The notes: generated by a model from the letters alone, not told the origin. Shown: positions 937 to 22,130, counted from the stretch's first letter. The stretch is 64,000 nt of DNA from an uncultured Rikenella sp. (GCA_964621005.1 CAZUIF010000010.1:43368-107367); one strand, 5' to 3'. A program made the numbers and translations.

Positions 937-2976
<2,040 letters not shown>

Positions 2977-4095
2977 TTAACTCCACACCCCGGGTATCCT
3001 GGTCCCGCAGGTGCATTTCCCCCCGGTGAGCGCCTGCGACACTATCCTGTAACCGCTCCTGTCCACCACCTTCTTCCCGCATGAGGGACAGACGGTATCG
3101 TCATTCCCGGCACCGGGGAGATTACCTACATAGACGTATTTCATCCCTTCAGCCCTGGCTGTTTCGGCTGCCTTTGTCAGGATTCCGGCAGGGGTGGGAG
3201 GCAGGTGCTCCAGCCTGTACTGCGGCTGGAAACGGCTGAAGTGAAGCGGTGTGTCAGTGAATCCGTTCTCAGCCAGCCAGTTGCACATCTGCTTTATCTC
3301 ATCAGGCTTGTCGGTCCAACCTGGTACAACAAGGTTGGTTATCTCCAGCCAGACACCTTCGTCACGGTAGGTCTTCAGGCTGTCAAGGATGGGCTGGAGA
3401 CGTCCTCCGGTAAGCTTGAGATATGTGCTGTCAGTAAATGATTTAAGGTCTATGTTGGCACCGTCAATGTAACGGCAGAGCTGTTTCAGCGGTTCCCTGT
3501 TGATATAGCCGTTTGAGACTATGATATTTTTTATTCCTGCATCTCTTGCAAGTTTTGATGTCTCGTAAACATATTCGTAAAAGGTGACAGGCTCCGAATA
3601 TGTGTATGCTATTGATCTGCAGCTGCCGGCAACTGCCTGTGACACGACGCCTGCCGGTGGCAGGTCGTAATTCCTTGTCTTGTCTGGAGATGTCTGCGAG
3701 ATGGTCCAGTTCTGGCAGTTGAGACATACGAGGTTGCATCCGGCAGTGGCGATTGAAAAGGCAGTGGACCCGGGCAGGAAGTGATACATCGGTTTCTTTT
3801 CAACCGGGTCAATGTTGACTGCACACGGATTGCCGAATGCCATCGTATAAAGCTTTGAATTTCTTGCTATTCTGTTGTGGCAGTCGCTCAGTTCACCGTC
3901 CTTGAGAGTACATTCGTTGGGACAGATCAGGCAGACGACACCCCTGGGGCTCTCCTCCTGGAACATCGCCAGTCTTTCTCCAGGTGCCGGCTTCATCGCC
4001 CCGGATGGGAGAGGGGCAAAAAAACCTGCTGCCAGGGCCAGTGATCCGTTCCTTGCAAAACTCCTCCGTGATATCTTATTACCTTTGTTGTTCAA
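2977..4095 (-). CDS. amrS: AmmeMemoRadiSam system radical SAM enzyme with Tat-like N-terminus
   Basis: CNLVCLNCQN radical SAM motif, DPVEKKPMYHF and YTYSEP motifs; TTG start; SRRSF twin-arginine motif. Confidence 0.9.
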   Translation of the reverse strand: MNNKGNKISRRSFARNGSLALAAGFFAPLPSGAMKPAPGERLAMFQEESPRGVVCLICPNECTLKDGELSDCHNRIARNSKLYTMAFGNPCAVNIDPVEKKPMYHFLPGSTAFSIATAGCNLVCLNCQNWTISQTSPDKTRNYDLPPAGVVSQAVAGSCRSIAYTYSEPVTFYEYVYETSKLARDAGIKNIIVSNGYINREPLKQLCRYIDGANIDLKSFTDSTYLKLTGGRLQPILDSLKTYRDEGVWLEITNLVVPGWTDKPDEIKQMCNWLAENGFTDTPLHFSRFQPQYRLEHLPPTPAGILTKAAETARAEGMKYVYVGNLPGAGNDDTVCPSCGKKVVDRSGYRIVSQALTGGKCTCGTRIPGVWS

Positions 4096-4126
4096 TCTGT
4101 TACGGATTCCATTGACGATTGTAAAT

Positions 4127-6553
4127 CTACTCTTTTATAGTCACAGATGCAACAATGCCTGACAGCAAAATGAAGAGGGCCAGGATAAAACAGGCATTGG
4201 CTGTTCCTGCAAGGGGGACGAGCAGGGTTGCCACTGTAAGGTAACCAAGGGCAGATCCGGCAGTATCTGCCGCATAGATGTTTCCGGTGTGGCTTCCCAG
4301 GGCCCCGGAGGTAAGGTTCCTGTATATGGCGCCGGTGACTATCCCTGCCGCAGGTACTGTAATAAAAATGAATGCAAGCACGGCGCCGTGGGCTGATACA
4401 ACAAGGGCAGGCGCAAGGATGCCGGTGAGGGTTATGATGCCTGTAAGAGTCAGTACGCTGACCTTCAGGCCCTCCATTGCCAGACGGTCACCCAATGCTG
4501 CCCCCGCAGCAAGGCCCGCCATCAGGAGTGTCAGTATCACTGCGGACAGTATGTATATGTTCCCCGCCGTCATCTGCAGGATGAATATCATTATCATGCC
4601 GAAACCCGCCAGTCCTGCGGATGAAGCAAACATCACCAGTCCTCCGCGCTGGACAAAGGCCGGGGGGATGATTATAAGCAGCACCAGCAGTGCTATGATG
4701 CCTCCCCTCATACCCATTCTTTCAAGGGAAAGGAGGTTTGAAAAGAGTGAGGAGACCGGCCTGAGCGCCGTATTCATCCTTGCTTTCCGGTCAACGTGAG
4801 ACAGTATCTGTTCGGCCCTGGCCTTTATCTCACTGTCATTGAGATAGTCGCTGTTTACATAGTCGCCTTGGATGCCCCGCTGGCCGGCAAGTTGTACAAT
4901 GGCAGGGGATACCGGTGCACCGGACGCAACGGCATACAGCAGCGAGCCCGGGATAAGGGTGACATGGCTGAAAGCGGCCGACAGTGCGTTGAAGAACGGG
5001 GAGAATCCCTTCCGGAAGCTGTCAGGCGAATAGTTGAACCATGGCATCGGGGTGCACATGAAGATCCCCTCCGGGGTGAGCTGCTCCCTTACAAGGCGAA
5101 AGTACTCGGTGGTATAGAACCTGCTGACTGACAGGGTTGAAGGAGGCGGAATCAGCTGAATTACCGCGTCCCATGATCCGCCGTCAGCCCTGAGGAAGGT
5201 AACAGGGTCATCCCGGACAACCTTCACCTGCATTGATCCGCACAGGGTATCCCGAGCTCCTTCGGCTTCAATGAGTCCCGGATCCATCTCCAGGTATGTC
5301 AGTTCCCGTATGTTGTATTTCAGCAGTTCAGGCAGGTGTCTTCTGAGACCGCCGGATATCATCAGCACCCTTTCGCAGCTGTTGCGCTGCAGGAGTGCAT
5401 AGTGTATGTTCTCTTCTGCTGAAACCACATCTCCCGGAAAGTAGAGAGGCCGGTGGTCGTAGAATACGGTGCGTTCACCGCTGTAGGTACCGGTGGTGAT
5501 GTTCCCGAACTGCGTATCAATGCTTTTTTCAGCCTTTACGCCCCGGAGGAGAAGGCTCCTTACTGCCGGGTCGGGCGGAAAAACGAACAGCAGGAATCCC
5601 AGCGGAAACAGGGCAGCCATTGCTGCAATCCTGATTTTCTTCGAATAACCCAGGAACCAGGCTGCAAATACCGAAGCCCCGAGAAGTATCAGCAGGTAAA
5701 GCTGGTAGTTGGATATCCTGAGCGCAACTGTCAGTGCCGTGACGGCGCCGGCGAACACAGAACCTGCCGTCTCAGCGGCAAAGCTGTGACCGGGGCTGGC
5801 TTTCCCTGCACTGCTCCTTAAAACAGCCATCCGCACGAATATCAGTGAAGAGATGAAAGTCACCGGAGCAACCGTTACCGACAGTATAAAAAGCTCCTGG
5901 AGGAAGGAGGGGGTCTGCCCGGGGCTGAGGATGATCGTGTTCATCATAAGGAAACAGAGAGGAGCCAGGGTGGTGCCGGCAAGCAATGTCCACACCATTC
6001 TTCTCACGGAGGTTATTGACGAGCGTTTTCCGGTCATGGCGCCACCGGCTGCAATGATCAGCCAGAGCCAAAGGAACAGGCCTGAAGTGACTTCGGTGCC
6101 TCCGCCGAGTATGCCCGCCTCGCGCATCAGCAGGAACTGCGATGCTGTGCTCACGAACCCCGTAAGGAGCAGCAGCGGCCTCAGACCCCCTGCGGGCATC
6201 ATTGCGGCCGGCGGCGCTTCAGCCGGTGCGTGCCCGTTGTCACGCACACTCGATTTTTTAACGTAGTATCCGAGGTGCCAAGTGAGGTGAATGAATGCTG
6301 CAAAAGCCATAGCGATGCCTGCCTCTACATGCCAGTGCAGCAGCGTCTCCGCCCAGGGCACTTCCCATCTGTAGGTGATGCGCAGGGCCAGGAAAAGGCC
6401 GAAGAGAGCGGCTGCAAGAAACGCCGCGAGCAATACCCAGTTCCAGAAACGGCGGTGAGAATGCCTGGCAGTGAATCCCGAGGCTGACAGGTAGAGGGAG
6501 AAAAGGTAAATGACCAGGAGGGTCACCCCTATAGGCACAACATGATATGTCAT
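4127..6553 (-). CDS. Polytopic membrane protein with spermidine-synthase-like (class I SAM-binding fold) domain and N-terminal His-containing membrane module
   Basis: Many TM segments around a soluble domain (LMISGG, LEMDP, DDPVTFL, FYTTEYF); N-terminal HRRFWN...WHVEAG...IHLTWH resembles DUF4405. Confidence 0.7.
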   Translation of the reverse strand: MTYHVVPIGVTLLVIYLFSLYLSASGFTARHSHRRFWNWVLLAAFLAAALFGLFLALRITYRWEVPWAETLLHWHVEAGIAMAFAAFIHLTWHLGYYVKKSSVRDNGHAPAEAPPAAMMPAGGLRPLLLLTGFVSTASQFLLMREAGILGGGTEVTSGLFLWLWLIIAAGGAMTGKRSSITSVRRMVWTLLAGTTLAPLCFLMMNTIILSPGQTPSFLQELFILSVTVAPVTFISSLIFVRMAVLRSSAGKASPGHSFAAETAGSVFAGAVTALTVALRISNYQLYLLILLGASVFAAWFLGYSKKIRIAAMAALFPLGFLLFVFPPDPAVRSLLLRGVKAEKSIDTQFGNITTGTYSGERTVFYDHRPLYFPGDVVSAEENIHYALLQRNSCERVLMISGGLRRHLPELLKYNIRELTYLEMDPGLIEAEGARDTLCGSMQVKVVRDDPVTFLRADGGSWDAVIQLIPPPSTLSVSRFYTTEYFRLVREQLTPEGIFMCTPMPWFNYSPDSFRKGFSPFFNALSAAFSHVTLIPGSLLYAVASGAPVSPAIVQLAGQRGIQGDYVNSDYLNDSEIKARAEQILSHVDRKARMNTALRPVSSLFSNLLSLERMGMRGGIIALLVLLIIIPPAFVQRGGLVMFASSAGLAGFGMIMIFILQMTAGNIYILSAVILTLLMAGLAAGAALGDRLAMEGLKVSVLTLTGIITLTGILAPALVVSAHGAVLAFIFITVPAAGIVTGAIYRNLTSGALGSHTGNIYAADTAGSALGYLTVATLLVPLAGTANACFILALFILLSGIVASVTIKE

Positions 6554-8139
6554 TTCTTCTCCTGTTCGCCAAAGACATAAGCCTCATACACAAAGATCTC
6601 AGTCTGGCTGTCCTTCCACCCGTCCCAGCCGATCCCGGCCTTGTCGCGGGCGCAGTAACCGAGGAACTGCTCCACGGTCCATCCCCGTTCGGTGGCAACC
6701 TGCGGCAGCAGTGTCCCTGAGCGGTACCCCTTTTTCAGGTAGATACCATGACGGCCGATCTTTATATCGCTGATGCCGGTGATCTTCTTCATGGGCCCGA
6801 GGACAGAAATTTCAACATGAATTGACGGGTACTCTGCCTTTGTCAGTGCCGGGAACCTTGGGTCACCGAATGCTGCCTCCAGGGCCATGGCGGAAACCAC
6901 CTCCCAGAGTGGTTCCTGTGAGGTGAACCTGCCTATGCAACCCCGCAGGTCACCGTCCTTCGTAAGGGTGACGAACACCCCCAGCGGCTCCCTTAGCCGT
7001 GTGGTAAGCCTGCTTTCATCCACGGCAGCGGGCTTCCTTCCGTTCAGCCTCGCCAGGATGGATTCGCGTGCAATCCCCAGAAGCGTCTGCTTTTCAGCTG
7101 CTGTAAGAGTAAAAGGTTCATCCGTGCCTCCATTGTCAATCATTGCGGCGGCAGGACCATGCCCTGCAGGAGTGTCATGTGAGACCGCATCACCGTTCGC
7201 AGGTGCACTTCCCATGGCGACTTCTGTTTTCCTCTCCAGCACTATGGCATTGTAACCCACCACTTCTTCCCTTGATCCGACCCTTGCATCACCCGAGTTC
7301 ATGTATTCCACGTTGCGGAAATGCAGCTCCGGGCTTTTGTCAGCCAGGTAGAGCAGCACCACCCCGGCAGGCCAGCCGCACATTGCAGTGGCAAGGTTTT
7401 CAGTACCTGATGACTCAATGTTCTTTATAGTCCGGAGAAATGCTTCGGGATCGCCCTTTATGATGGCATCACTGGCAAGCCTGTCGACGCGTTTCGCATC
7501 CTCGTATGAGGGATAGTGCGAAAAATCACTGCTGATGACAAACAGGTTGCGGTCATTGAACCATGGCTGAAGGCCTGCGGCTATCGCCTTAAGCACCGTT
7601 GTGTTCCTGGTGCCGATCAGTATCGGGACGATTGCCGGGGGATCTTTAAAATGATACTGTATGAACGGAAGCTGCACTTCGAGCGAATGCTCAGGTCCGT
7701 GCGCCTCGTCCTTCCCGATGAACCATCTGTTTGCTGATTTAAGGAAGTCGCCCAGTTCCCTGTTGACCTTCAGTGTCCCGAGCGGTGTCACCAGGTTCCC
7801 GCTGCTGAATACTGCAGCTCCTTCAAATCCGTATCTGTGGCTTACCCCTATAAGGAAGATATTGTCATATTTTGCCCCTGCAGGGATGGCTGCATAGCCC
7901 GCTGCAGCCGTATGCCCTGAATAGACATAGCCGGCATGAGGCACTATAATGGCCCTGACCATTACCCCTGGGCTGGGTTTTTCAAATGATGCAAAGTACC
8001 CTTCAAGTTCACTTCTGAGCCTTTCACTGACAGAGGGATAGAAACTCCCTGAGACTACAGGCTGCCTGTCACGTTCCTGACCGAATATGTTCATGAGCGG
8101 AATAATTGACATTACCAGGATAATACAAACCGTTTTCAT
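6550..8139 (-). CDS. AmrB (MEMO1-like)-AmrA (AMMECR1-like) fusion with signal peptide
   Basis: PVVSGSFYP, IVPHAGYVYSG, EHSLEVQLP, SSDFSHY (AmrB); GVFVTL...LRGCIG, DPRF, TLLPQV (AmrA). Confidence 0.92.
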   Translation of the reverse strand: MKTVCIILVMSIIPLMNIFGQERDRQPVVSGSFYPSVSERLRSELEGYFASFEKPSPGVMVRAIIVPHAGYVYSGHTAAAGYAAIPAGAKYDNIFLIGVSHRYGFEGAAVFSSGNLVTPLGTLKVNRELGDFLKSANRWFIGKDEAHGPEHSLEVQLPFIQYHFKDPPAIVPILIGTRNTTVLKAIAAGLQPWFNDRNLFVISSDFSHYPSYEDAKRVDRLASDAIIKGDPEAFLRTIKNIESSGTENLATAMCGWPAGVVLLYLADKSPELHFRNVEYMNSGDARVGSREEVVGYNAIVLERKTEVAMGSAPANGDAVSHDTPAGHGPAAAMIDNGGTDEPFTLTAAEKQTLLGIARESILARLNGRKPAAVDESRLTTRLREPLGVFVTLTKDGDLRGCIGRFTSQEPLWEVVSAMALEAAFGDPRFPALTKAEYPSIHVEISVLGPMKKITGISDIKIGRHGIYLKKGYRSGTLLPQVATERGWTVEQFLGYCARDKAGIGWDGWKDSQTEIFVYEAYVFGEQEKK

Positions 8140-8202: not shown

Positions 8203-8661
8203 TCAGATGAGAACGATGTTCTCCTTCAGTGTATTTCCGTCTTCATCAATGCCGTAGAGCCTGATTCCGACACTGCATGTTGCATCAGCGGTGACATCCA
8301 GGAACGGGGAGAGCGATTCCCTTACATCCTCTTCTCCCATCGAGTCATATTCCTCAATGTCGAAATAGAGATGCACAAACAGTATATGATCACTCTTCCT
8401 GATCTTCGTCAGCACTTTCAGGATCTTCCCCATCCATATTACAGATGAAGTATTGAAGTAATCGACATTGAACTTTAGATTGGTACTTTCAGCCGGGTTC
8501 TTGGCATACTCTGACGCCCACTTGTAAAGTGGCTCGAAGAAACCTGAGGCGTTTTCAGGCAGCGATTTGCCTGTAAATGTTAGAATTCCGGTGGCTGCAG
8601 TAAAACTAACCTGCGGTGTTTTAGAGGTAGCCTCAATTCGTATATCCTGCAATTTTACCAT
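8203..8661 (-). CDS. SiaC-family (DUF1987) regulatory protein
   Basis: TSKTPQV, GKSLPENA and YFNTSS motifs; 152 aa. Confidence 0.8.
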   Translation of the reverse strand: MVKLQDIRIEATSKTPQVSFTAATGILTFTGKSLPENASGFFEPLYKWASEYAKNPAESTNLKFNVDYFNTSSVIWMGKILKVLTKIRKSDHILFVHLYFDIEEYDSMGEEDVRESLSPFLDVTADATCSVGIRLYGIDEDGNTLKENIVLI

Positions 8662-15728: not shown

Positions 15729-16508
15729 ATGAAACAGGCGAGACAACTGCTTACACATATTCCCGAAAGGCCCGCCAAGCCGAGAAAAGAGGGGTTGACG
15801 ATGGTAATGGACAAGGGGCTGAGCCTCAGGGAAGCTGAAGACTTTGCAGAAGTTGGCAGCGGATATGTCGATTTCGTGAAGCTTGGCTTCGGAACATCGG
15901 TAATCACACCAGGGGTGGACGAAAAGATCAAAACCTACCATGACGCCGGTATGACGGTCTATTTCGGCGGTACTCTTTTCGAGGCCTTCATTATAAGGGG
16001 CCTGTACGGCGAATTTGTTGACATGCTGAAGGATACTGGAGTAAAGATGGTTGAGATCTCCGACGGGTCCTATGAGTTTGATCACAGCGAAAAGCTTGAT
16101 TATATCCGGAGGCTGTCACAGGAATTTACAGTTATCTCCGAGGTGGGCTCAAAAAAGAAGAATATTGTCTATACCCCTCACCAGTGGGTTGAGATGATGA
16201 AGTCCGAGCTCGGAGCAGGCTCCGTGAAGGTAATTGCAGAGGCCCGCGAATCAGGTACGATTGGAATATACAATGATGACGGTTCGGTGAACCTCGAGCT
16301 GATAAACACAATATCCAGGGAGATAGGATTCAACAACGTGCTCTGGGAAGCCCCGCTGAAACAGCAGCAGGCCTGGTTTATCACCAACTTCGGGGCCAAT
16401 GTCAACCTCGGAAACATTGCCCCAAATGAGATAATTGCCCTCGAATCACTCAGACTTGGACTGAGAAGCGACACCTTCTTCAGTTTCCTTCCTGAAAACA
16501 TGAGATGA
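15729..16508 (+). CDS. comA: Phosphosulfolactate synthase (ComA family)
   Basis: KPRKEGLTMVMDKG, DFVKLGFGT, VISEVGSK, EARESG, WEAP, NVNLGNI, LRLGLRSDT. Confidence 0.9.
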   Translation: MKQARQLLTHIPERPAKPRKEGLTMVMDKGLSLREAEDFAEVGSGYVDFVKLGFGTSVITPGVDEKIKTYHDAGMTVYFGGTLFEAFIIRGLYGEFVDMLKDTGVKMVEISDGSYEFDHSEKLDYIRRLSQEFTVISEVGSKKKNIVYTPHQWVEMMKSELGAGSVKVIAEARESGTIGIYNDDGSVNLELINTISREIGFNNVLWEAPLKQQQAWFITNFGANVNLGNIAPNEIIALESLRLGLRSDTFFSFLPENMR

Positions 16509-20459: not shown

Positions 20460-21680
20460 TCAGTTACCGGGAGCGATCAGCATGCCGTCGCCGTAGCTCA
20501 GGAACCGGTACCCTGAACATAGGGCATGGCTGTAGAGATCTTTCCAGGATTCACCTGTGAATGCGGCTACCAGGAGCAGCAGGGTGCTGTGGGGCTGGTG
20601 GAAATTTGTGAGCATCCTGTTTACTATCCTGAACCTGTACCCCGGGACAATAATTATGTCCGTGCGGGCCTCCAGCGTATCGAGGCCTCTCTTTTCAAGT
20701 GCGTCAAGAATGTTATCGATTGCCGCTGAAGGGTCAATGACTGCCTCCCTCTCATAAGGCTCCCACTGGGAAACAGTTGGAATTCCATGTTCGGGCCATC
20801 TTCCCTCGGAAAGGCTCAATCCGAGCCAGTAGAGGCTTTCAAGCGTCCTGACAGTGGTAGTGCCCACCGCGGTCGTTTTCCTGCCTCTAAGACGCTCCAG
20901 GGTCTGTTTTGAGACAAAAAAGTGCTCGCTGTGCATCTGGTGATCAGAGATCAGTTCAGATTTGACAGGTCTGAATGTGCCGGCGCTGACATGAAGGGTA
21001 ACCTCCGCCCGTTCGATGCCTGCGCTGTCTAGTGCACCGAGCACGGCCGGGGTGAAATGGAGTCCGGCGGTAGGAGCAGCAACAGAGCCGTTTATACGGG
21101 CATAGGTGGTCTGGTAGGTTGATATGTCGCTCTCCTCGTCATCCCTGTTGAGATAGGGGGGTATTGGCATATGACCGAGACACTCGAGGACTTCTGCAAA
21201 AGAGAGAGTGTTCTCATCCCATGTGAACCTGACTGTGAAGGCATCACCTGCTGTCCCTGTACGCTCTGCACTGAGGATGTGCTCTTTGCCGTCATGAATG
21301 AACCGTGATTCCAGTATGCCGCTTTTCCAGCGCTTGAGGTTGCCTACCAGGCATTTCCATCCGACCCGGCCACCGGAGGCCAGGTTCATGGAAAAATCCG
21401 CCGGATCATGTGGTTCAAGACAGAATATCTCAATTGTGGCACCGCTCTCCTTCCTGAAGAGGAGCCGGGCGCGGATGACCCTTGTGTTGTTGAATACAAG
21501 GAGGCTGTCGCGGTCGGCAAGCATTGGAAATTCACTGAAGATCCTGTCGCTGATGCTGTTGCCATCCCAAACGAGCAGCTTCGACCGGTCCCTTTCAGGA
21601 AGAGGGTATTTTGCAATCCGCTCCTGGGGAAGGTCGTAAGTGTAATCGGCAATCCTTATGTTTCCGAAAGTCTTTTTCAT
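20460..21680 (-). CDS. queA: S-adenosylmethionine:tRNA ribosyltransferase-isomerase
   Basis: LVFNNTRVIRAR, MPIPPY, YQTTYA, AAPTAGLHF, VGTTTVRTLES, TNFHQP, FLSYGD; start placed at MKKTF. Confidence 0.95.
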   Translation of the reverse strand: MKKTFGNIRIADYTYDLPQERIAKYPLPERDRSKLLVWDGNSISDRIFSEFPMLADRDSLLVFNNTRVIRARLLFRKESGATIEIFCLEPHDPADFSMNLASGGRVGWKCLVGNLKRWKSGILESRFIHDGKEHILSAERTGTAGDAFTVRFTWDENTLSFAEVLECLGHMPIPPYLNRDDEESDISTYQTTYARINGSVAAPTAGLHFTPAVLGALDSAGIERAEVTLHVSAGTFRPVKSELISDHQMHSEHFFVSKQTLERLRGRKTTAVGTTTVRTLESLYWLGLSLSEGRWPEHGIPTVSQWEPYEREAVIDPSAAIDNILDALEKRGLDTLEARTDIIIVPGYRFRIVNRMLTNFHQPHSTLLLLVAAFTGESWKDLYSHALCSGYRFLSYGDGMLIAPGN

Positions 21681-21747
21681 ATTATCCGGGGGGACACGGG
21701 AATTTTTTCCCGGAGCCCGCAGGTTTTGCACTGCTTTTACGGTCGGG

Positions 21748-21765
21748 CAAAAATAGCTAAATTTG
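21748..21765. promoter_or_regulatory. Back-to-back -7 elements for queA (minus) and smr-sad (plus)
   Basis: TATTTTTG on minus at 21748-21755; TAAATTTG on plus at 21758-21765. Confidence 0.6.
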
Positions 21766-21782
21766 AGATGAGTTGAAAAGCC

Positions 21783-22130
21783 ATGAAAGTGAGCCGCAGC
21801 AGAAGGAATACTCCGCGAGGCCGGCCGGCCGGGGTATCGGGAGCAGCCAGGGAGGTTGATCTTCACCTGCCCTCCGGCCATGCAGGTCAGGAGGCGCTTG
21901 AAAGGCAGCTTGCACGTGTCAGGGGAGAGCTGAACAGCGCCATCAGGGCAGGAGAGAAGGAGATAATATTCATCCACGGTGCAGGAAGCGGCAGACTGAG
22001 GGAAGCACTACGTGACCTCGTTGCGCATGAGTATCCTTCATGCATTTGCCATGATGCCTCATTTCCCAGGTATGGTTACAACGGAGCCACGGCAGTGACA
22101 ATAAAAAAGCATCAGATATGGCATACATAA
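21783..22130 (+). CDS. Stand-alone Smr domain protein
   Basis: EVDLH, IIFIHGAGSGRLR, DAS...YGYNGAT. Confidence 0.8.
   Translation: MKVSRSRRNTPRGRPAGVSGAAREVDLHLPSGHAGQEALERQLARVRGELNSAIRAGEKEIIFIHGAGSGRLREALRDLVAHEYPSCICHDASFPRYGYNGATAVTIKKHQIWHT

Follow-up and report, generated by a model that had tools for sequence, protein, structure and literature searches.

Predicted export signals and a putative membrane protein partner accompany an AMMECR1/Memo/radical SAM enzyme set in an uncultured Bacteroidales genome

The 64,000-nucleotide stretch of DNA analysed here (the window) comes from an uncultured Rikenella sp. (GCA_964621005.1 CAZUIF010000010.1:43368-107367) and carries on its minus strand a tightly packed set of genes encoding an AmrB-AmrA fusion protein, an 808-aa membrane protein (hereafter Memb), the AmmeMemoRadiSam radical SAM enzyme AmrS, and LigA. 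The coordinates of the genes and of their predicted parts are collected in Table 1. The stop codon of the amrB-amrA fusion gene and the start codon of the Memb gene overlap as ATGA, and gaps of 31 nt and 33 nt separate the Memb gene from amrS and amrS from ligA, respectively. A first-pass annotation made from the sequence alone had described this gene order, the overlap and export-type N-termini on both soluble enzymes, and this observation was confirmed. It did not mention a SiaC-like (DUF1987) gene that lies upstream on the same strand. A promoter and terminator scan, which does not cover Bacteroidetes promoters, was uninformative and placed no terminator-like site between the genes.

Table 1 Features of the amr locus and predicted parts of the encoded proteins, with positions counted from the first nucleotide of the window
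Feature	Coordinates	Strand	Size or residues	Assignment
SiaC-like (DUF1987) gene	8203-8661	minus		Pfam SiaC E=8.7e-24
amrB-amrA fusion gene (Memo + AMMECR1)	6550-8139	minus	529 aa	Pfam Memo residues 27-299, E=2.5e-52; Pfam AMMECR1 residues 356-523, E=2.8e-52; TIGR04336 223.7 bits (cutoff 26); TIGR04335 167.5 bits (cutoff 99)
Predicted Sec/SPI signal peptide of AmrB-AmrA	8080-8139	minus	residues 1-20	MKTVCIILVMSIIPLMNIFG, followed by Q
Memb gene	4127-6553	minus	808 aa	17 helices predicted; AlphaFold2 model pLDDT 77
N-terminal three-helix histidine-rich module of Memb	6260-6553	minus	residues 1-98	
First MFS-like helix bundle of Memb (predicted)	5582-6193	minus	residues 121-324	AlphaFold2 model pLDDT 85
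SpeE-fold domain of Memb, predicted periplasmic and catalytically degenerate	4718-5536	minus	residues 340-612	
C-terminal seven helices of Memb (predicted)	4139-4708	minus	residues 616-805	One linker helix plus the second MFS-like bundle, from DSSP on the model, the repeat alignment and the loop charge pattern
amrS	2977-4095	minus	372 aa	TIGR04337 336.2 bits (cutoff 220); Radical_SAM residues 116-267
Predicted Tat signal peptide of AmrS	3997-4095	minus	residues 1-33	...KISRRSFARNGSLALAAGFFAPLPSGA, followed by M
ligA	937-2943	minus		

All three AmmeMemoRadiSam family models (NCBIfam TIGR04335 AmrA, TIGR04336 AmrB and TIGR04337 AmrS) are matched above their curated cutoffs, and the AmrS translation contains the CxxxCxxC motif as CNLVCLNC, together with additional Cys motifs. 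The AmrS N-terminus reads as a twin-arginine leader, SRRSFAR followed by the uncharged h-region NGSLALAAGFFAPLP and a small-x-small c-region, SGA, before Met34, and resembles the SRRxFLK consensus (PMC3712460). The leader depends on a TTG start codon, as the next in-frame ATG is codon 34; in related loci, 49 of 74 have an ATG within 25 codons upstream of the motif, and public gene calls mostly use the 372-aa form. The twin-arginine-type motif plus an uncharged h-region, in the form [ST]RRxF[AT]R or [SG]KRxF[LIV]K, is present in all 75 related loci that include the region, 74 by pattern (52 RR and 22 KR) and one by eye, and lies 44-56 residues before the first Cys motif, with the frame kept open upstream of the catalytic core. 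It is the only Tat-like motif with an uncharged h-region in any six-frame ORF of at least 100 aa in the window. No Tat gene was found among the 26 of about 50 window ORFs that were scanned. A lipoprotein signal was considered for the AmrS leaders of the far clade (…AGLMCFPC…) and rejected, because the residues before the Cys do not fit a lipobox. The AmrB-AmrA leader consists of MK, the hydrophobic core TVCIILVMSIIPLM and NIFG before Gln21. A hydrophobic core followed by a small residue and Gln is conserved in 71 of 71 counted loci and in three more read by eye, matching the Sec/SPI Q-rule of Bacteroidetes (PMC5837995).

To determine whether the membrane gene is associated with signal-bearing amr genes, related loci were examined. 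Memb has 223 relatives in species-representative genomes, and the best 80 are all labelled Bacteroidales or Bacteroidetes. Among the 80 loci examined, all from MAGs, amrBA, Memb and amrS are adjacent in every Bacteroidales locus long enough to show them, down to 33% Memb identity. Complete MAG chromosomes, for example OY970276.1 and OY970346.1, carry the cluster. A core homolog of Memb of ~710 aa (phmmer E=1.4e-27) directly follows a Tat-leader AmrS in the four Zixibacteria loci with DNA, with stop and start codons overlapping or abutting. A divergently transcribed AmrB-AmrA with a Sec leader was present in the three of these loci where it could be read, although the other neighbors differ. 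Other Tat-signal proteins occur beside the Zixibacteria clusters. Every Memb homolog whose context was read lies next to an AmrS gene. One control locus with signal-less AmrS has signal-less AmrA and AmrB and no Memb gene. Signal-bearing and signal-less forms of the three proteins co-vary, although only four Zixibacteria loci and one such control were inspected. Co-occurrence of the membrane gene with signal-bearing amr genes, the lack of which had been set beforehand as a condition for rejecting the first-pass proposal, was found in every Bacteroidales locus complete enough to read. Tat leaders occur on about a fifth of the 150 nearest AmrS cluster representatives, and some Tat-AmrS loci have no Memb gene nearby, so the predicted export is not unique to this lineage.

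The large soluble domain of Memb has a predicted SpeE fold, with the N-terminal β-hairpin plus Rossmann domain. The top Foldseek hits are aminopropyltransferases (1UIR, E=1.7e-9, target TM-score 0.64; about 0.65 to solved SpeE structures). A search of solved structures by sequence with the whole protein returned only weak SpeE hits, at residues 379-498, and the Pfam Spermine_synth model gives a weak match at residues 383-500 (E=9.1e-9, 35.6 bits against a cutoff of 22.9). The scores are far below the curated family cutoffs: 50.4 bits against 472 for PRK03612, the membrane-bound forms of the spermidine synthase family (PF01564), and 30.5 bits against 249.55 for TIGR00417. The two catalytic aspartates of the D(S/L)xDP motif are replaced, IDLTDP becoming IQLIPP, or ILNPGE in Zixibacteria homologs, and the GGGxG dcSAM loop is degenerate, GGGEG becoming SGGLR (SGGL in Bacteroidales, GRxE in Zixibacteria). 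The ribose-binding acid E422 and the D449 equivalent are invariant in Bacteroidales, but E422 is Ala in 20 of 23 Zixibacteria sequences, and the residues expected to bind SAM are not conserved between the two phyla. By the positive-inside rule the domain is predicted to face the periplasm: mean K+R is about 19 in the nine loops on one side of the membrane, against about 4 in the eight short loops on the side of the SpeE-fold domain.

The helices flanking this domain form an internal repeat, with residues of about 156-279 aligning to about 669-781 (hhalign probability 80%, E=1.4e-5). Two homologous six-helix bundles in parallel orientation, as in Major facilitator superfamily transporters, are suggested by this repeat and by the helix count of the model. 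An inverted 7+7 transporter repeat was considered and rejected, since the alignment pairs helices of the same orientation, giving a parallel 6+6 arrangement with two extra helices. Most of the top Foldseek PDB hits of the first bundle are MFS transporters (NarK, URAT1, SLC37A2 and FLVCR2), with probability up to 0.98 but with E of 0.2 or worse and a query TM-score of 0.4-0.5. No Pfam family matched either bundle at E up to 10, and there is no NCBIfam MFS match. In contrast to MFS transporters, the central loop is predicted to be moved to the periplasm by the two additional helices and holds a 270-residue domain.

The N-terminal three-helix module is absent from the Zixibacteria homologs. In the Bacteroidales proteins H33, H75 and H89 are invariant, H4 and H93 are at least 90% conserved, and H75-x13-H89 lie on one helix. 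Pfam matches of the module are enriched for heme-b families but are all below curated thresholds: DUF4405 in 6 of 15 members (best E=3.8e-4; 9.1 bits against a cutoff of 26.7 for the window protein), Ni_hydr_CYTB in 5 of 15 and Ferric_reduct in 3 of 15, with the Ni_hydr_CYTB, DUF2231 and Ferric_reduct matches weaker than DUF4405. A search of solved structures by sequence returned nothing useful for this module. DUF4405 was shown experimentally to bind heme b (PMC11334425).

We interpret this locus as an extracytoplasmic version of the AmrA/AmrB/AmrS system, a reading that we hold with only moderate confidence. The family assignments, the conserved leader motifs, the gene adjacency and the loss of the SpeE catalytic residues are shown by the sequences. 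Export, localization, cofactor binding and any joint action of the proteins are inferred. From the conserved signals, AmrS would be exported folded, with its Fe-S clusters inserted in the cytoplasm as expected from sequence, through Tat, whereas the AmrB-AmrA fusion would be exported through Sec and cut by signal peptidase I before Gln21. From the conserved adjacency, the translational coupling and the predicted topology, both enzymes would work at the outer face of the inner membrane with the protein encoded between them. Memb reads as an MFS-like 6+6-helix core whose central loop forms a catalytically degenerate SpeE-fold domain in the periplasm, most likely a docking or ligand-binding platform, and is not a credible transferase. 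An RNA target is unlikely for this variant. Several points weigh against this interpretation. No radical SAM enzyme is known to work outside the cytoplasm, and neither SAM nor a low-potential reductant is known there. The leaders were recognized from motifs alone, and the AmrS leader relies on the TTG start. One relative (P0130) carries a Sec-type leader on a single Memo-AMMECR1-radical-SAM chain, which could not receive Fe-S clusters by any known route if exported unfolded.

More speculatively, Memb may supply what the periplasm lacks. The MFS-like core would pass a small molecule, either the substrate or product of the pathway or the cosubstrate SAM, and in Bacteroidales the N-terminal module would bind heme b and pass electrons outward to the radical SAM enzyme. 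In some other lineages, NapH-like membrane proteins, encoded next to two of the Zixibacteria clusters, and DsbD-type or FMN-binding modules fused to AmrS relatives may do the same job; relatives of AmrS are fused to DsbD_2, FMN_bind+Fer4_5, CBM_11 and β-propeller modules. A radical SAM enzyme truly at work in the periplasm, kept running by Memb through a heme-b module, an MFS-like channel and a SpeE-fold receiver domain for SAM or the substrate, is not excluded but remains doubtful. If correct, it would to our knowledge be the first extracytoplasmic radical SAM pathway, and would redirect the search for the function of the AMMECR1 and Memo families away from RNA.

The first-pass interpretation, that this version acts in the periplasm with a membrane SAM/dcSAM-binding partner, was only partly supported. 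The export signals, which are conserved, and the link to the membrane gene stand, but the SAM/dcSAM-binding transferase and the claim of uniqueness were not supported, and nothing in these data bears on the proposed lipid-linked glycan or envelope protein targets. Among the alternatives, the least improbable, though still unlikely, is that the enzymes stay cytoplasmic, the Tat-like leader being vestigial or a chaperone-binding sequence, as in some Tat-derived cytoplasmic enzymes, the hydrophobic N-terminus of AmrB-AmrA only a membrane tether, and the substrate cytoplasmic, such as RNA. Radical SAM chemistry needs SAM and reductant, both known only in the cytoplasm. The context-based proposal for AMMECR1 is an RNA base modification (PMC2034487), and Tat signal peptides also serve as chaperone-binding sites (PMC3712460). 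The P0130 fusion and the TTG start also favor this view. However, the AmrS leader keeps a full uncharged h-region and a small-x-small c-region rather than just the RR motif, and the partner carries an independent Sec leader, whose positively charged N-terminus and hydrophobic core would orient the rest of the chain outward, on the same side as the predicted position of the soluble domain of Memb. The co-variation of signals among the three proteins is a further argument against it.

It is very unlikely that Memb is an active SAM- or dcSAM-dependent transferase modifying a lipid-linked glycan or envelope protein together with the exported enzymes. The predicted SpeE fold, the Pfam match and the invariant E422 and D449 equivalent in Bacteroidales favor it, and some Tat-AmrS relatives sit beside glycosyltransferases or are fused to a carbohydrate-binding module, but besides the lost catalytic residues there are no methyltransferase family matches, and no glycan or lipid gene is conserved next to the cluster in the Bacteroidales loci. 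Equally unlikely is that the export signals are real but Memb is only a syntenic neighbor with an unrelated transport role. In favor of this view, ligA and the SiaC-like gene are just as syntenic in the Bacteroidales loci without any obvious functional link and some Tat-AmrS loci lack Memb, but Memb lies between amrBA and amrS with a 4-nt overlap and its adjacency to Tat-AmrS recurs in Zixibacteria, while that of ligA and SiaC does not.

The AmmeMemoRadiSam system is itself already known but uncharacterized, and AmrB-AmrA fusions and clustering with the radical SAM gene are also seen in other lineages. What differs here is that all components carry predicted export signals and that an 808-aa membrane protein gene is inserted between the enzyme genes. 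The family has been treated as cytoplasmic with a proposed RNA-modification role (PMC2034487), genomic contexts of Memo are reportedly the subject of Burroughs et al. (JBC 2019, PMC6664185), and in the library searched, no paper on AmmeMemoRadiSam, on AMMECR1 with radical SAM, Memo or the periplasm, or on periplasmic or twin-arginine radical SAM enzymes described an exported form. Tat-exported Fe-S redox enzymes serviced by a membrane electron-transfer subunit, for example NapGH/NosR-type or DUF4405-type systems (PMC8238504, PMC11334425), likewise pair a cofactor-bearing enzyme with an SRRxF-type leader and a membrane partner; in our locus the membrane partner has a candidate transmembrane redox module. 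However, the enzyme is a radical SAM protein and not a respiratory reductase, the candidate heme module is only three helices, and no ApbE or flavinylation gene was seen in the window.

AMMECR1 and Memo are conserved from archaea to humans and are linked to human disease, yet have no established biochemical function, and the bacterial three-gene system is the main contextual clue. A conserved exported version with a dedicated membrane partner, as inferred here, narrows the possible substrates for this branch to molecules available at or beyond the inner membrane and argues against RNA as the universal target. It also poses the concrete question of how a radical SAM enzyme would obtain SAM and electrons outside the cytoplasm. 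The SiaC-like gene is present upstream wherever the Bacteroidales loci extend that far but is absent from the Zixibacteria clusters, and its membership in the system is doubtful. Memb is currently annotated as "hypothetical" or "spermidine synthase", and the second label is probably wrong.

The five tightly packed genes of the minus strand between positions 937 and 8661 are listed with the other located features in the table below. The Memo-AMMECR1 fusion exceeds the curated cutoffs of TIGR04336 (AmrB) and TIGR04335 (AmrA), and the radical SAM protein exceeds that of TIGR04337 (AmrS). The stop codon of amrBA overlaps the start of the membrane protein gene as ATGA, and the next two intergenic gaps are 31 and 33 nt. 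The remainder of the 64 kb is ordinary chromosome, containing argS, ffh, folD, nuo genes, pta-ackA, relA/spoT and dnaE, and the closest relatives are uncultured Bacteroidales MAGs. The first-pass annotation had described an amrB-amrA fusion, a membrane protein gene and amrS packed on the minus strand and followed by ligA, with export-type N-termini on both soluble enzymes, and this observation is correct in every particular.

Coordinates of the located features (positions are in the window unless another locus is named)
Feature	Location	Strand	Size
SiaC-like (DUF1987) gene	8203-8661	-	
Memo-AMMECR1 fusion gene (amrBA)	6550-8139	-	529 aa
Membrane protein gene	4127-6553	-	808 aa
Radical SAM gene (amrS)	2977-4095	-	372 aa
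ligA	937-2943	-	
Gene matching (2R)-phospho-3-sulfolactate synthase ComA	15729-16508	+	
QueA (queuosine biosynthesis) ORF	20460-21977	-	
Zixibacteria locus L088	L088:1195-12692		
Zixibacteria locus L087	L087:3357-9130		
Locus with Tat-leader AmrS-like gene lacking Memo and AMMECR1 neighbors	L082:2260-8089		
Insertion between membrane gene and amrS, complete Bacteroidales chromosome L069	L069:9439-12133		about 2.7 kb

AmrS begins with MNNKGNKISRRSFARNGSLALAAGFFAPLPSGA, followed after the predicted cleavage point by MKPAP, and this leader contains a twin-arginine motif, a 15-residue uncharged stretch and a small-x-small end. Because the leader depends in the window on a TTG start, the next ATG being codon 34, we examined it in the loci returned by a scan of species-representative genomes for the membrane protein. 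All 75 loci that include the region keep the frame open and retain the motif, as [ST]RRxF[AT]R in 52 loci and as [SG]KRxF[LIV]K in 22 loci of a more distant clade, with one further locus (L014) confirmed by eye. In the distant Bacteroidales clade (L058-L080) the motif is consistently KR (SKRDFLKK) rather than RR in the 22 loci, although it otherwise matches the SRRxFLK consensus better than does the motif of the near clade. The motif lies 44-56 residues before the first cysteine motif, an ATG lies within 25 codons upstream in 49 of 74 loci, and public gene calls mostly use the long form of the protein. Across six frames of the whole window, among ORFs of at least 100 aa, this is the only Tat-like motif followed by an uncharged stretch.

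AmrB-AmrA begins with MKTVCIILVMSIIPLMNIFG, followed after the predicted cleavage point by QERDRQP. A strongly hydrophobic core followed by a small residue and Gln is present in 74 of 74 complete loci, which is the pattern described as the Bacteroidetes Q-rule for signal peptidase I substrates (PMC5837995). For both proteins the assignment of a signal peptide rests on motif and conservation rather than on predictor scores, but the conservation indicates that the leaders are real features and not ORF artefacts.

To determine whether the membrane protein gene is linked to signal-bearing amr genes, we compared gene order in 80 Bacteroidales loci. Every one that is long enough has the order SiaC-like gene, amrBA, membrane gene, amrS, ligA, and this holds down to 33% identity of the membrane protein, although that much could be due to shared ancestry. 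In one complete Bacteroidales chromosome (L069) there is an insertion between the membrane gene and amrS, where the other loci have at most a few hundred bases. The SiaC-like gene lies 63 nt upstream of amrBA on the same strand and is conserved there wherever the Bacteroidales loci extend that far, but its score is far below the SiaC equivalog cutoff (60.6 against 150).

We then searched representatives of the whole AmrS family and read the genomic contexts of several out-of-clade members. In four Zixibacteria loci (L085-L088), a Tat-leader AmrS (MDRRLFVKCLG…, MQRRSFLRCLG…) is directly followed by an approximately 710-aa protein homologous to the membrane protein of the window (phmmer E=1.4e-27), with stop and start overlapping or abutting, and a fifth place, read without nucleotide sequence, shows the same AmrS-to-membrane-protein order. 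In three of the four loci a divergently transcribed Memo-AMMECR1 fusion with a Sec-type leader was read. A DUF362 gene precedes amrS, its stop overlapping or abutting the amrS start in L087 and L088, and in L088 two further DUF362 proteins with Tat leaders, a NapH-like Fer4_5 membrane protein and two DUF6599 genes flank the cluster. Neither ligA nor the SiaC-like gene is found in the Zixibacteria clusters. A high-GC locus (L081) has Tat-AmrS and Sec-AmrB-AmrA but no membrane gene nearby, whereas a locus with a signal-less AmrS (L089) has signal-less AmrA and AmrB and no membrane gene. The membrane gene therefore implies signals in every case read, while signals do not always imply the membrane gene, although the samples outside Bacteroidales are small.

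Export-type AmrS proteins are common. Among the 150 best 50%-identity cluster representatives, at least 29 have Tat-type N-termini, 84 have short N-termini, and about 24 have other long N-terminal extensions. The extensions include DsbD_2 membrane domains, FMN_bind plus NapH-type Fer4_5 membrane modules, a CBM_11 carbohydrate-binding module and a Reg_prop/PorZ-like beta-propeller (representatives P0123, P0142, P0145, P0146, P0162, P0137, P0126 and P0129), as well as single-chain Memo-AMMECR1-AmrS fusions. FMN_bind, NapH-like and DsbD modules are the transmembrane electron-transfer devices catalogued for extracytosolic redox systems (PMC8238504), although the radical SAM domain of these fusions could lie on either side of the membrane. 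Of the triple fusions, P0130 (835 aa) has a Sec-type, Q-rule-like leader and no other hydrophobic segment, which is hard to reconcile with Fe-S cluster insertion if the protein is exported unfolded, whereas P0125 (838 aa) has an N-terminal anchor followed by KKNEK.

An AlphaFold2 model of the membrane protein (pLDDT 77) shows 17 helices and a central alpha/beta domain. The central domain has the spermidine synthase fold (Foldseek to 1UIR, E=1.7e-9, target TM-score 0.64), but alignment to the Thermus SpeE shows that the glycine loop GGGEG is replaced by SGGLR and the catalytic IDLTDP by IQLIPP. In the Zixibacteria homologs the corresponding sequences are GRxE and ILNPGE, and the ribose-binding acid (E422), which is invariant in Bacteroidales, is Ala in 20 of 23. 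D424, D449, D462 and R478 are conserved in both phyla. We conclude from these replacements that it is not an aminopropyl- or methyltransferase; SAM binding is unproven for the Bacteroidales branch and unlikely as a property of the whole family.

Loops 1, 3, 5, 7 and 9 and the alternate loops of the C-terminal block are rich in K and R, whereas the others are nearly free of them (about 19 against 4 on average over 19 sequences), which predicts that the N-terminus and the SpeE-fold domain are in the periplasm and the C-terminus in the cytoplasm. Helices 5-8 align with helices 13-16 (hhalign probability 80%, E=1.4e-5), giving two parallel six-helix bundles plus one extra helix on each side of the soluble domain. 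A separate model of the first bundle (pLDDT 85) finds mostly MFS transporters among its best PDB neighbors, but with weak statistics (E about 0.2), and no Pfam MFS model matches, so that an MFS-like identity is probable but not shown.

The first three helices exist only in the Bacteroidales proteins. They carry the invariant H33, H75 and H89, and H4 and H93, which are at least 90% conserved, with H75-x13-H89 on one helix. When family members were scanned one by one, the sub-threshold hits concentrated on haem-b membrane families: DUF4405 in 6 of 15 (best E=3.8e-4), prokaryotic cytochrome b561 in 5 of 15, and ferric reductase in 3 of 15. DUF4405 and the three-helix FezC were shown to bind haem b (PMC11334425). 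As all of the matches are below threshold, we regard haem binding by this module as a lead and not as a demonstration.

The family identities, the gene order, the conservation of both leaders, the fold of the central domain, the loss of the SpeE catalytic residues and the internal repeat are established by the analysis. From these we infer that AmrS leaves the cytoplasm folded through Tat and that AmrB-AmrA leaves through Sec, and that both act at the outer face of the inner membrane with the membrane protein, whose SpeE-fold domain is predicted to face the same side. It is more speculative that the membrane protein provides electrons through haem in the three-helix module, a role that in Zixibacteria may instead be filled by the NapH-like protein that lies next to two of the clusters, and that the MFS-like core passes a small molecule. 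This picture is weakened by the P0130 fusion, with its Sec-type leader on a single chain that includes the radical SAM domain, and by the absence of any known SAM or low-potential reductant in the periplasm. An attractive but purely conjectural idea is that AmrS carries SAM out with it, or receives it through the partner.

By its defining models the cluster belongs to the AmmeMemoRadiSam system, for which the published context-based suggestion for AMMECR1 is an RNA base modification (PMC2034487); a 2019 survey of the Memo superfamily reportedly added a possible link to isoprenoid modification. Neither the export signals nor the membrane partner is mentioned by any paper found in the literature library searched, and public records call the membrane protein "hypothetical" or "spermidine synthase". 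The cluster would work like Tat-exported Fe-S enzymes that depend on a membrane electron-transfer subunit, but it is not a member of any such described family.

The interpretation offered by the first-pass annotation, that this version acts in the periplasm with a membrane SAM/dcSAM-binding, transferase-like partner that might modify a lipid-linked glycan or an envelope protein, is supported only in part. Export and the linkage to the membrane protein, although inferred from sequence, stand on good comparative evidence, whereas the SAM/dcSAM transferase reading of the membrane protein does not stand, and the proposed targets remain conjecture. An exported form of this known but uncharacterized system would be surprising to specialists in radical SAM enzymology and in Tat export, and it makes the long-standing question of Memo/AMMECR1 function more tractable, because location, topology and haem binding are directly testable properties.

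Outside these clusters, we detected in locus L082 a Tat-leader AmrS-like radical SAM gene without Memo or AMMECR1 neighbors, which sits beside a PMT-type GT-C glycosyltransferase, a GT2, a SPASM radical SAM gene and a BNR/Ycf48-like propeller with an N-terminal helix. Elsewhere in the window, the QueA ORF has about 109 residues before the Pfam match begins, which may be due to an over-extended ORF or to a real N-terminal extension. The ComA match is strong (E=9.3e-87) and the gene lies next to a shikimate-dehydrogenase-like gene; ComA is known mainly from coenzyme M biosynthesis, which makes it an unexpected find in a Bacteroidales genome.
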